From the NCBI RefSeq assembly GCF_051903065.1, contig NZ_CP178438.1: DNA of 64,000 nucleotides; one strand, given 5' to 3'. The stretch comes from Escherichia coli (GTDB lineage Bacteria; Pseudomonadota; Gammaproteobacteria; Enterobacterales; Enterobacteriaceae). How positions within the stretch are numbered: the first letter of the stretch is position 1; every line of letters begins with the position of its first letter. Below are positions 17,952-43,978 of the stretch, piece by piece. The translations under genes were made by a program, and so were the position numbers. The notes beneath the pieces are model-generated. The model had not been told where the DNA came from, ran no database searches, and saw nothing but the letters and a program-made list of their open reading frames with translations.

Positions 17952-18428
17952 AGATAGTTGAGATACCAGGGATGGTGTTAAAAACTACATTATTCTTACG
18001 ATATATCAAAAATGATTAACCATTTATTAATTGATGTTATTGTGAGTGTGATTCTTAATTATCATAATAAACATTAATTTAACCATATCCATACAAAATA
18101 CAATGGTTTATGTTCTTCAAAATAAATAAACAAAATCATTCATAAATTTACACATCACTTAAATTCTCCTGTTTTCGCACTTTTTTCTTTATTTTTTAAG
18201 CAACTGGAAGTTAATCCACTGCAATCTATTGTTATATTGAATCAAATCAATGAAAATAGATGTTATCACATCAGTGATATTTTATTTTTGTATGATATTT
18301 AATGTAATTGACTGATAGCCACATCACTTCGTGTGTGGTTATCTTTTTATCTATTGGGCTAATTTTGACCGATTGAGGTTTCCTATAGGTATTCATTCAA
18401 ATATATCTCAGTTAGGAGTACTACTATT

Positions 18429-19025
18429 GTGAGTAAACGTCGTTATCTTACCGGTAAAGAAGTTCAGGCCATGATGCAGGCGGTTTGTTACGGGGCAACG
18501 GGAGCCAGAGATTATTGTCTTATTCTGTTGGCATATCGGCATGGGATGCGTATTAGTGAACTGCTTGATCTGCATTATCAGGATCTTGACCTTAATGAAG
18601 GTCGAATAAATATTCGCCGACTGAAGAACGGATTTTCTACCGTTCACCCGTTACGTTTTGATGAGCGTGAAGCTGTGGAACGCTGGACCCTGGAACGTGC
18701 TAACTGGAAAGGCGCTGATCGGACCGACGCCATATTTATTTCTCGCCGCGGGAGTCGGCTTTCTCGCCAGCAGGCCTATCGCATTATTCGTGATGCCGGT
18801 ATTGAAGCTGGAACCGTAACGCAGACTCATCCTCATATGTTAAGGCATGCTTGCGGTTATGAACTGGCGGAGCGTGGTGCCGATACCCGTTTAATTCAGG
18901 ATTATCTCGGGCATCGAAATATTCGCCATACTGTGCGTTATACCGCCAGTAATGCTGCTCGTTTTGCCGGATTATGGGAAAGAAATAATCTCATAAACGA
19001 AAAATTAAAAAGAGAAGAGGTTTGA
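18429..19025 (+). CDS. fimE: Type 1 fimbriae recombinase FimE, 198 aa (GTG start)
   Basis: MSKRRYLTGKEVQAMMQAV... matches K-12 FimE. Confidence 0.95.
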   Translation: MSKRRYLTGKEVQAMMQAVCYGATGARDYCLILLAYRHGMRISELLDLHYQDLDLNEGRINIRRLKNGFSTVHPLRFDEREAVERWTLERANWKGADRTDAIFISRRGSRLSRQQAYRIIRDAGIEAGTVTQTHPHMLRHACGYELAERGADTRLIQDYLGHRNIRHTVRYTASNAARFAGLWERNNLINEKLKREEV

Positions 19026-19072
19026 TTTAACTTATTGATAATAAAGTTAAAAAACAAATAAATACAAGACAA

Positions 19073-19386
19073 TTGGGGCCAAACTGTCCATATCATAAAT
19101 AAGTTACGTATTTTTTCTCAAGCATAAAAATATTAAAAAACGACAAAAAGCACCTAACTGTTTGATATGTAAATTATTTCTCTTGTAAATTAATTTCACA
19201 TCACCTCCGCTATATGTAAAGCTAACGTTTCTGTGGCTCGACGCATCTTCCTCATTCTTCTCTCCAAAAACCACCTCATGCAATATAAAAATCTATAAAT
19301 AAAGATAACAATAGAATATTAAGCCAACAAATAAACTGAAAAAGTTTGTGCGCGATGCTTTCCTCTATGAGTCAAAATGGCCCCAA
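19073..19386. promoter_or_regulatory. fimS: fimS invertible switch (314 bp) bounded by 9-bp inverted repeats TTGGGGCCA; here apparently in the OFF orientation
   Basis: Left repeat at 19073-19081 and right repeat at 19378-19386 are exactly 314 bp apart. The promoter-like TTGAGA-18 bp-TATGATA lies on the minus strand next to the fimE-proximal repeat, pointing away from fimA. Confidence 0.75.
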
Positions 19387-38029: not shown

Positions 38030-38581
38030 ATGGCAAAGTACAACGAAAAAGAGCTGGCGGATACGAGCAAGTTTTTAAGTTTTGTCCTCCGACACAAACC
38101 GGAGGCGATTGGTATCGTACTGGACCGTGAAGGATGGGCGAATATCGATAAGCTCATACTTTGTGCCCAAAAAGCGGGCAAGCGGTTAACCCGTGCATTG
38201 CTGGATACCGTGGTCGCCACCAGCGATAAAAAGCGTTTTAGTTATTCCAGTGATGGTAGGTGCATCCGCGCGGTTCAGGGGCATTCGACTTCGCAGGTCG
38301 CTATTTCCTTTGCCGAAAAAACACCGCCACAGTTTCTCTACCACGGTACGGCAAGCCGTTTCCTTGACGAGATAAAAAAACAGGGGCTGATTGCAGGGGA
38401 TCGTCATTACGTGCATCTCTCTGCTGATGAAGCAACGGCACGCAAAGTGGGAGCAAGACACGGATCGCCGGTTGTCTTAACCGTCAAAGCACAGGAAATG
38501 GCGAAACGAGGCATCCCTTTCTGGCAAGCGGAAAACGGGGTCTGGCTGACATCAACGGTTGCTGTTGAGTTTCTTGAGTAG
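38030..38581 (+). CDS. kptA: RNA 2'-phosphotransferase KptA, 184 aa
   Basis: [29 protein letters not shown]...; Tpt1/KptA family; start at the internal ATG. Confidence 0.9.
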
Positions 38582-38692
38582 TCGTTTATGCCGGCTGGGG
38601 TACAAAAACAATAAATTCAATATATTGCAGGGGTTATATAGGCCTGATAAGCGCAGCACATCCGGCAATGTAGCGTTTGTTATCAGTCTGAA

Positions 38693-38722
38693 AGGATACC
38701 CTCGTAAAAGGGTATCCTTTAA
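38693..38722. terminator. Hairpin between convergent kptA and adhesin genes (9-bp stem AGGATACCC/GGGTATCCT), candidate bidirectional terminator
   Basis: Read directly; T/A-rich flanks on both sides. Confidence 0.5.
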
Positions 38723-38737
38723 TAACAACTGCTGAAA

Positions 38738-41700
38738 TTAAAGTGATTTACGGCAGGCGGTCAGTTGGGGGCTGGAATCAGCGTCGCTTCCGGTCATACC
38801 GGTTAGCATCTGCACATAGTAGTGCCGACTGTAATCATCAGATTCACTTGTCCAGTAAGCTCCCGGTGTAAATTGCGAATTACTGGAAAACGCTCCAACG
38901 TTCCCCCATTCACCATACAGCGATCCCTGCGTGCGTTTGTTTTCGCCAGACGTCAAATGTGCGATGCCAGGGAGATTATATCCATCATTTTTAGCATGAC
39001 AGAGCGCATTGGCAGCTAGCCAGATATTGGTATGATTTCCATTATTCACCCACCAGCCTTTCAGCTTAATTAAGGTCTGGTAGGTTGTACCTCCTTGTCG
39101 GGGAACAGCGCTTATTGTTACTGACGTTTGATCGCCGATATTTGCGAAAGAAACCTTACCTGAAGCATCGACCGACACCCAACTCTGTGAACTTGAAAAC
39201 ATATAATCATCAACGGTTTTACCCGCTTCAAAGTTATCATTGTTGAGTGTGTAATACGCTCCTGCAAAACCTTCGCTCGGGAATTTAGCCGTGGAGAAGG
39301 TATGGTTGTTTGCAGTGACATGACCGGACATTTCTTTTATCGAGCGGATGAGATTCAGCGATACGCTTAAGTTTGCCTGATGAACCCCGTTCAGCATGGG
39401 AATGAGAGTCGCTGTTCCCTCTTTTCCGCCAGTGACAGTCACGGTGTACTCGCCATAATTTCTTTGGCTGTAATCAATATCGCTCAACTTGAGAAAGTTC
39501 ACGAAGGGACCTGACTGGACAAATTCCAGATGATCAGACGTCACTATCGGGTTACCGTACTTGTCTTGCAATGTTAGCGTAAGTTTCGCGCTATGCTGGT
39601 AGTCAGCCATCAGAGTGCTAACGTCGGATTTCAAAATTGACTTACTTTCATCCGCCGTGCCGGCAATCAAGGTAATAGCTGCGGATTGGTTGGCTGTACC
39701 AGGAACTTGCACATTGACTGTTAAGGTTTCTGCCAATGTACTGGTTATTGTCGCCGTGACTTGCCCGGATTGATCGGTACGCGTAGTTGGAATATTAACT
39801 ACCGGGCGACCTTTGGTGTCTAAGGTATAACTAACATCGACACCTTCAACCGGGAATCCGTAATCATCTTCTACTCGTGAAGTGATGGTGCTGCTATCGA
39901 TGCCGTCGGCGGTGATGGTGTCAGGAGAAGCCACGACGCTCACAACATGTGCCGTTTTAGCATCTGCCTTAACCGCAACCGTTACCTGGCTCTGAACGGG
40001 AACATCTTTGCTCATTATGGCCGTAACGGTATAGACATTCACTTTGTCACTGGTCAGCGTCACTTTGGCCTGACCTGACTGGTCAGTAAGGACTTCCCCT
40101 GTATTGCTTAGCGTTGCACCTTCAGGCGTTACGCTAAAGGTGATAATTTGCCCTGGCATCAATTCACCCCGCGCATTTCTCGCCGTTGCGGTCAGCGTAA
40201 TACCCTCACTATTATGGACCGTGGTTTCTGGTTTCGATGATGTTAACTCGAGTTTGCCATTTGCCACATTCACGTCAACCTTACTACTACTGTTATTGTC
40301 CAGCGTTGCCGTCACCTGATAAACCCCAGGTTGGGTGCTGAGAAGGTTAACGTACGCATAACCGTTATTATCGGTGTAAGCCGTATCGCCTATCGTAATG
40401 TTAGCTGTTGGCTGCGCACTTAATCTGACGCGTTGACCCGCGATTACATTGTTAAACGCGTCCGGGACGAGTATCCGTAGCGTGATGTTTTCGCCCACCG
40501 TTATCGTTTTTTCGGCTCCGGTTATACTTATTACCTTCGCCGAACTTTCATCCGGCAGCACTGATAAACTAAACGTTTTATTATCGGAGGCTTGCGCTTT
40601 CCGGCTCACCACGACGTTATGTTGTCCGGCAATATTGCTGGTCATTGTTACCGTCGCCTGACCCAGCGTATTGGTGGTGACTTCTGTTCCGCTTAGAGTG
40701 ACATCGTTACTCTGGAAAGTGACCAACTGGTCTTTAAGCGGATTTTGGTAAGCGTCCAGGATCGTTGCCGTCAGGGTACTCCCCGTACTGTTACCCGCAA
40801 CAATGGAATTTAATGAGGCAGTCAGCGGCTGGAGCTGCGCACTGTTTGTATCCCCAATAAAAGTGACTTGCTGATAAGCAACGGTATTATTTCTGGTCAG
40901 CGTCGCCGTAACTGTAAACTCACCCGCTTTTGTGCCTCGCAATGTGACCACGGCATCACCGTTTGCATCGGTGCGGGCGGTTTCACTACTTAGCGTGAAG
41001 TTCCCGGTCATGGAGGCTGGCAAGGTAAATTTCACATCCTCATCCGGCAACGGGTGTCCATAAACATCTTTCACACTGGCAGTCAGGGTAACGGTATTTG
41101 TATTGTTAGCGATCGCACTGCCCGACCCAGCATTCAAGGTCATTACCGATTGTTCCCTGTTTGGGACCACGGTGATCGTGACCGACTGGTGAATATTTTT
41201 ATTCACCTCAAGCGAGGCATCGACGGAATAGCTACCAGCTTTTGAACTGGTCAGGTGCACCCGCACAATACCGGACTGGTCTGTTGTGGCGGTCGTGTTG
41301 TCCAGTTGCGAGCCACCAGGTGCCACAAAATTCACTTTCATATCTTTTAACGGGTTGTTATGAAAGTCTGTGACGATGGCGGTCAGAGTACTGCCCTGGC
41401 TGTTGCCAGCAATAATGGTATCTGGATCGGCAACCAGTTGTTTGAATTTTGGCGTACTCGAATCGCTAACGAATTTCGCAATTATCCGTTGTGAGAAACC
41501 ATTTGGCAGCGTGGCGCTAATCGTATTTTCTTCCGCAACCTGACTTACCATGTTGATTGTGGCAACACCGTATCCATCCGTATTTTGCTGCGGCGGTTCG
41601 ACAAATTCCGCGCTTCCTTTTTCATTCTTAAAGGTGACCTGATGATTTATCAGGGGATTATCACTCTCATCAGTGACGTTGATAGTGAGGGTATTAAATG

Positions 41701-43978: not shown

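Follow-up and report, generated by a model that had tools for sequence, protein, structure and literature searches.

We read the gene at positions 38738 to 43978, on the minus strand of the 64,000-nucleotide stretch of Escherichia coli DNA analysed here (the window), as an intact allele of iatD. In this reading, to which we give a probability of about 0.9, iatD is an accessory gene on the chromosome that encodes a type Ve adhesin, it lies on a replaced haplotype of ~10.6 kb, and its product depends on a run of seven C residues (C7) near the 5′ end. Work published in 2019 had already described the gene together with its family, chromosomal location, patchy occurrence and a first phenotype, and annotation pipelines assign it this name. 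As found, iatD matters little, and what we add are refinements concerning the haplotype, the C tract and the tip of the protein.

The gene is a single open reading frame that begins with ATG and encodes 1746 amino acids followed by a stop. It has the exact coordinates given in the original prediction; according to the ORF list and the translation, it is intact and free of internal stop codons, and its GC content of 0.45-0.55 is near the values of its flanks. By megablast against 5426 complete E. coli genomes, strain 23CRST027 carries the gene at 100% identity, under the RefSeq label ‘iatD: inverse autotransporter IatD’. The genes iatA-D were defined in strain SMS-3-5, in which iatD is EcSMS35_4876, with a length of 5241 bp (Goh et al. 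2019, mSphere, PMC6714894). The window protein and SMS-3-5 IatD, both of 1746 aa, share 97.25% amino acid and 97.5% nucleotide identity, with 48 substitutions in the protein, 130 nucleotide differences over the 1746 codons and no indels.

The SMS-3-5 gene also occupies the matching kptA-yjiJ locus, with kptA on one side and yjiJ, a gene with an SdiA-regulated domain and a pentapeptide-repeat gene on the other, as in the window. Besides the substitutions, the two alleles differ in the C tract, which is uninterrupted in the window, and in their surroundings, since the window carries an IS903B element (46339-47395) upstream of the yjiK-like gene; this element is also missing from 23CRST027. Judged by sequence and position, the window gene is a member of the IatD orthologue group. 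The original prediction had listed the Iat family among those to compare with, and that was the right family. Within NCBIfam, we found no IatD model that passed its cut-off; the best match was the IatC N-terminal model, on which the N-terminal ~840 residues of IatD score 1127 bits, below the cut-off of 2400.

The gene is flanked by kptA (38030-38581, plus strand) and yjiJ (44189-45367, minus strand). In K-12 MG1655, these two genes are convergent, their ends lie 12 bp apart and no gene stands between them, so that K-12 lacks the gene at this junction, as the original prediction said. The same prediction described the adhesin gene as inserted between kptA and yjiJ; this was right about position but not about a simple insertion, since a whole block, at 38583..50227, has been replaced. 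Its limits were set by blastn of the window against MG1655 and by linkage counts. Identity to K-12 is 98.5% up to position 38582, at the end of kptA, and 96.8% again from position 50228, at the 3′ end of ytiA. Between these points lie, in order, a REP-like element, iatD, a divergent yjiJ (the copy just mentioned), a yjiK-like gene (45435-46277), IS903B and an espX6-like gene for a pentapeptide-repeat protein of 758 aa (47613-49889), which has no counterpart in K-12 and on whose context the literature searched gave nothing relevant.

The yjiJ-yjiK segment of the window is just 80.6% identical to that of K-12 by blastn. Among the complete genomes, 636 carry yjiJK of the window type (≥95% identity) and 4740 carry the K-12 type (80-90%), with no intermediates. 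Together with the 641 genomes that carry iatD, these counts point to the arrival of iatD within the replaced ~10.6-kb block. The gene order is common to SMS-3-5, O157 and 23CRST027. On this sequence evidence, iatD is part of an alternative haplotype of the kptA-ytiA interval rather than a simple insertion, which makes it a marker of recombinational replacement and not of island insertion.

For the origin of the block, we scanned species representatives for outgroup KptA matches; Escherichia lineage L009 was the sole Escherichia among the matches listed, the others being Gilliamella and Shinella. L009 has the K-12-type kptA-yjiJ junction, and its yjiJK is ~82% identical to the window allele, compared with a regional background of ~91% between L009 and K-12 over yjiJ-yjiN. 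Taking the K-12 arrangement as ancestral is the most economical reading of this single outgroup locus. The most likely source of the block is an enterobacterium further removed, from which E. coli would have acquired it by homologous replacement; this suggestion again draws on the one outgroup. When the IatD passenger was searched against GTDB species representatives, by a method that reaches close relatives only, tblastn confirmed no orthologue outside E. coli. In the homologue listing for the passenger, the 120 matches listed were all IatD-type at 98-99% identity and the named ones were all from E. coli, which makes them uninformative on origin.

A query restricted to the passenger, which avoids cross-matches to paralogues, found iatD in 641 of the 5426 complete E. 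coli genomes, or about one in eight, in single copy and always on the chromosome. This bears out the earlier description of an accessory, strain-variable adhesin. With the whole gene as megablast query, full-length copies at 90-99% identity were recovered from 638 genomes; another ~1170 genomes matched over nt 199-1994 only, at ~77% identity, and these are yeeJ-type paralogues.

The original prediction further held that the Ig-like modules are prone to recombinational changes in length, and here the data point the other way. The passenger query of 3263 nt gave a single alignment of 3263 nt for 56 of 60 carriers sampled evenly over the ranking. The other four comprised a 1-nt deletion, two matches ending 2 and 12 nt before one end of the query, and one remnant; no change of the size of a repeat was seen among the 60. 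Tandem Repeats Finder reported no tandem repeats in iatD. The gene has just one family of 19-nt direct repeats (74-79% identity) and one 16-nt palindrome, both of which look like chance-level matches, and the Ig modules have diverged from one another and are not repeats at the DNA level. Variation in repeat number was likewise not found in Goh et al. 2019 (PMC6714894). We therefore rejected expansion and contraction of the Ig repeats by recombination. The length variation that is present in iatD is single-base slippage in the 5′ C7 tract.

The predicted protein begins with an extended Sec signal peptide at residues 1-45 (43844..43978, minus strand), which we read by eye from a basic n-region, the hydrophobic stretch VCLFTQFFFPVMA and a putative A-T-A|Q site at about residue 45. 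A LysM-like, presumably periplasmic segment follows at residues ~69-117 (43628..43774, minus strand). Periplasmic LysM domains are found in large type Ve members, without being universal. The LysM domain claimed in the original prediction is also given for IatD, from InterPro, by Goh et al. 2019 (PMC6714894), whereas the Pfam match in our search was weak (E 0.48, residues 79-99).

The outer-membrane β-barrel of the inverse autotransporters is found at residues 148-430 (42689..43537, minus strand), where the Pfam model IAT_beta (PF11924) matches residues 148-423 with an E-value of 4e-108. Sequence searches of the PDB returned the invasin barrel 4e1t (E 1.5e-81) and the intimin barrel 4e1s (E 1e-65). 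Residues 537-1536 (39371..42370, minus strand) contain some ten Big_1/Invasin_D3 Ig-like domains according to Pfam and PDB matches. The Pfam positions are approximately 537-631, 640-714 (weak, E 0.29), 745-836, 847-938, 946-1041, 1052-1135, 1164-1238, 1244-1333, 1346-1437 and 1443-1536; apart from the weak one, nine domains have E ≤ 0.001. The array also matches FdeC 4e9l, intimin D0-D1 6tpl and InvE 5n40 in the PDB. A further Ig domain, of D00 type, may occupy residues ~431-536, and we estimate the rod at ~11-12 Ig-like domains in total. All Big_1/Invasin_D3 matches are C-terminal to the barrel, which is the inverted order. The barrel and the long Ig-like run are thus as originally described, and with the barrel, the inverted passenger and a lectin-like tip, IatD belongs to the inverse autotransporters of the type Ve secretion pathway.

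The tip itself, identified using phmmer, AF2 and Foldseek, comprises a D4-like Ig domain and a C-type-lectin-like domain at residues ~1545-1746 (38741..39346, minus strand). Pfam places Invasin_D4 at ~1564-1624, and phmmer aligned the tip to invasin 1cwv with an E-value of 2e-25, covering invasin D1-D5 over residues 1255-1713. AF2 modelled the last 303 residues with a pLDDT of 95.3 from an alignment of 38 diverse sequences, obtained through a 50%-cluster search; single-sequence AlphaFold gave a pLDDT of 31. The best Foldseek matches of the modelled tip are invasin 1cwv (E 5e-20, TM 0.63) and the intimin fragment 1f00 (E 6e-14). Judged from the model, the lectin-like module at the tip is genuinely of the invasin/intimin type. 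Cys1660 and Cys1742, the only cysteines outside the signal peptide, are each at least 90% conserved in the 38 homologues, and Cys1660 is aligned to invasin Cys907 in the phmmer alignment to 1cwv. The pair agrees with the C-terminal disulfide pattern of the family, and the two residues would be expected to form such a bond. The Cys-containing, lectin-like C-terminal domain of the original prediction is present, and barrel, Ig repeats and tip all match the intimin/invasin type to which the adhesin had been assigned.

Comparison with known systems places IatD close to several of these proteins. The closest relatives of its tip are other E. coli inverse autotransporters, at 38-47% identity. YeeJ and IatC, large E. 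coli inverse autotransporters with a LysM domain and a lectin-like tip, resemble IatD in overall architecture but differ in chromosomal locus, passenger length and sequence; nt 199-1994 of iatD share 76-77% identity with yeeJ. With Yersinia invasin, IatD shares the barrel, a tip homologous over D1-D5 and the equivalent of Cys907; invasin has four Ig domains against the ~11-12 of IatD, and its Asp811 and Asp911 are aligned to other residues in IatD. Intimin (Eae) has the same type Ve barrel and supplies the second-best fold match of the tip, but the rod of IatD is much longer. An identification as intimin was rejected, since the score on the NCBIfam model intimin_all is 361 bits for a cut-off of 1400 and the context is not that of the LEE: the neighbours are kptA, yjiJ and yjiK, with no Tir partner nearby.

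The C7 tract lies at 43794..43800, as seven G residues on the plus strand, and corresponds to nt 179-185 of the gene (codons 60-62). No other G/C run of this length or longer occurs in the 64-kb window. We determined the state of the tract by alignment and pattern matching of nine strains. The window, 23CRST027, KK05-19 and Lstone01 have C7 and are in frame. A C8 frameshift is found in O157:H7 FDAARGOS_293, S1-KEN-03-A and 99RCEF, the last of which has a haplotype different from that of O157, and a C6 frameshift in O145 RM9873-C1, MS7163 and F8704-2; all six of these copies are annotated as frameshifted. In SMS-3-5, the tract is interrupted, reading CTCCGTCCCC where the window has the uninterrupted C7. 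Among 38 genomes grouped by a common flanking haplotype, the tract has the C7 length in 33, is C8 in three and C6 in two. We interpret the tract as a hotspot of recurrent mutation, although some of the C6 and C8 calls outside O157 may be homopolymer errors of long-read assembly.

The O157 copies of iatD are 5242 nt long, and the extra base in the C tract creates a stop at codon 67. The 359-nt (C8) length was common to all 27 typical O157:H7-type genomes of an evenly drawn sample, which indicates that the OFF state is stable in this lineage; the in-frame length occurs in O55:H7 DEC5D and O157:H7 LSU61. Data Set S1 of Goh et al. 2019 records iatD in O55:H7 RM12579 but not in EDL933 or Sakai (PMC6714894). 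The pipeline used in that study dropped proteins without a signal sequence, and the paper makes no mention of frameshifts (PMC6714894). This pattern fits a C8 frameshift in typical O157:H7 and an in-frame gene in O55:H7 DEC5D and O157:H7 LSU61. The published ‘absence’ of iatD from O157:H7 is in fact a frameshift of one base, in a C tract that has slipped independently in other lineages. The literature searched made no mention of this recurrent frameshift site.

From what is known of the family, IatD would be exported by Sec by means of its extended signal peptide, and BAM would insert the N-terminal 12-stranded β-barrel into the outer membrane. The LysM-like segment would remain in the periplasm, probably in contact with peptidoglycan, as the C-terminal passenger is threaded outward via the barrel. 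The rod of Ig-like domains would hold D4 and the lectin-like tip, stabilized by a Cys1660-Cys1742 disulfide, far from the cell surface. Full-length exported protein depends on the C7 tract, and slippage by one base, to C6 or C8, truncates it just past the signal peptide, as has occurred repeatedly in natural strains, typical O157:H7 included.

When overexpressed in K-12, SMS-3-5 IatD is surface-exposed and promotes biofilm formation, and neither autoaggregation nor binding to extracellular matrix (ECM) proteins was observed (Goh et al. 2019, PMC6714894). By analogy, the window allele may be displayed and promote biofilm in the same way, the phenotype carried over from SMS-3-5 being one of overexpression. 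In wild-type SMS-3-5, IAT proteins were undetected in LB or M9 at 28-42 °C (Goh et al. 2019, PMC6714894), and iatD may therefore be silent under most conditions.

Slippage at the tract raises the question of whether iatD is phase-variable, with slipped-strand mispairing at C7 switching it reversibly ON and OFF at a rate relevant to populations. Poly-G/C tracts control surface proteins in this manner in Neisseria, Haemophilus and Campylobacter. The tract is unique of its kind within 64 kb and sits just 3′ of the signal peptide, where a change of frame costs the protein all of its useful parts. C6, C7 and C8 all occur in natural isolates on several haplotype backgrounds, the five variants within the 38-genome group among them, and two O145 cattle isolates with near-identical genome size and gene position have C6 and the C7 length, respectively; the interrupted tract of SMS-3-5 would be a stable version. 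Against this, C8 is common to all 27 of the sampled O157:H7-type genomes, and an OFF state fixed through the diversification of a lineage argues for a low switching rate. A tract of 7-8 bases is also short for efficient slippage in mismatch-repair-proficient E. coli, and the possible assembly errors mentioned above count against some of the length variants. On balance, we consider phase variation unlikely and prefer the mutational hotspot. If phase variation were true, iatD would be a rare example in E. coli of an adhesin controlled by a simple repeat, an unusual mode in a species whose surface proteins as a rule switch through DNA inversion or Dam methylation; this would also explain the otherwise pristine OFF copies in O157:H7 and scattered lineages, which a slip by one base might, in principle, turn back on.

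Two further alternatives concern what the product does, if anything. A tip that acts like Yersinia invasin, binding β1 integrins and mediating uptake by host cells, would agree with the fact that invasin D3-D5 is the closest match, in both sequence and structure, to the last 300-460 residues of IatD. We regard such an activity as very improbable, since the tip is just 24% identical to invasin and the relevant residues have changed. Asp911 in D5 and the synergy residue Asp811 in D4, which we take to be the β1-integrin-binding residues of Y. pseudotuberculosis invasin (numbering checked via Cys907), correspond to Asn1664 and Ala1564 in the phmmer alignment to 1cwv, with Asp1665 adjacent to the former. 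With neither aspartate kept, invasin-like integrin binding is not expected, and the lack of ECM-protein binding by IatD (Goh et al. 2019, PMC6714894) points in the same direction. The other alternative is that iatD is a decaying relic without present function, retained through its linkage to the adjacent block, its intact copies being those not yet hit. Its frameshifts are repeated and independent, the pseudogene is fixed in typical O157:H7, native IAT expression went undetected in SMS-3-5 (Goh et al. 2019, PMC6714894), and at least one genome (H90) retains a remnant only. Yet the 5.2-kb reading frame is open and constant in length in most of the sampled carriers, across distant lineages and at 96-99% nucleotide identity, and 48 amino acid changes have resulted from the 130 nucleotide differences from SMS-3-5 over 1746 codons. 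When overexpressed, IatD is moreover exported and folded, and it shows activity in biofilm assays (Goh et al. 2019, PMC6714894). We accordingly find a relic improbable.

Around the gene, scans for promoter and terminator consensus sequences found sites no more often than in shuffled sequence, and there were no Rfam matches in or beside iatD. A strong stem-loop begins 5 nt past the iatD stop codon (38672..38733, minus strand), with a predicted RNA folding energy of -27.2 kcal/mol, a z-score of -6.9 relative to shuffled sequences and a perfect 12-bp core 16 nt past the stop. It is terminator-like, but without a U-tract.

The yjiJ and yjiK-like genes of the variable block, the stretch in which this region carries an alternative haplotype relative to K-12, are present as divergent alleles (44189-46277), with DNA that is only ~81% identical to that of the K-12 alleles. 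This divergence far exceeds the usual variation of the E. coli core genome. Across E. coli, yjiJ/yjiK sequences fall into two clean allele classes, represented by 636 and 4740 genomes, and we found no intermediates between them.

The final kptA codons mark the left breakpoint of the variable block (38578-38700). The C-terminus of KptA reads ...EFLE* in the window versus ...EFLEW* in K-12, and the SMS-3-5 protein is 194 aa long. The end of kptA is followed by a REP-like element (38601-38689), which is 78% identical to a K-12 REP near rpnD.

A complete IS903B of 1057 bp is found at 46339-47395, flanked by a 9-bp target site duplication, ATAAGGAGT (46330-46338 and 47396-47404). The yjiK-like gene has a TTG start codon, and the insertion lies 61 bp ahead of it, placing the element upstream of the co-oriented yjiK, yjiJ and iatD genes, the last of which encodes the inverse autotransporter adhesin. 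Strain 23CRST027, with 100% identity to the window in every stretch of the region that was compared, lacks this IS903B copy.

Repeat-number variation within the variable block is found in a pentapeptide-repeat gene and not in iatD. This gene (47613-49889, minus strand), annotated in O157 as espX6, a T3SS effector, is missing from K-12. The length of its product differs between strains: the window protein has 758 aa, the O157 protein 729 aa and the SMS-3-5 protein 657 aa. BLAST matches to the gene are split into two to three pieces. In iatD, the region encoding the signal peptide contains a second homopolymer besides the C7 tract (43863-43870), which is T8 in the gene and A8 on the plus strand. 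Across seven aligned strains this tract appears as T8, T7 or T6 by substitution, and its length is constant.

The neighborhood of the locus is shown to be a hotspot of strain-specific blocks, because SMS-3-5 carries an insert of ~20 kb between iraD and hypT that is missing from both the window region and K-12. The insert (2155-22332 of the SMS-3-5 locus, L010; window counterpart ~34480) contains ptsP/dhaKL, gcl, ibeA and nhaC, i.e. a GimA-type ibeA island.

The SymR antitoxin RNA (RF01809, 58844-58920, plus strand, 91.7 bits) is the only match to Rfam at the gathering level across the window. In the near-identical strain 23CRST027, we also observed a frameshifted IS1A transposase between ytiC and yjiC (18411-19107 of its locus, L001).
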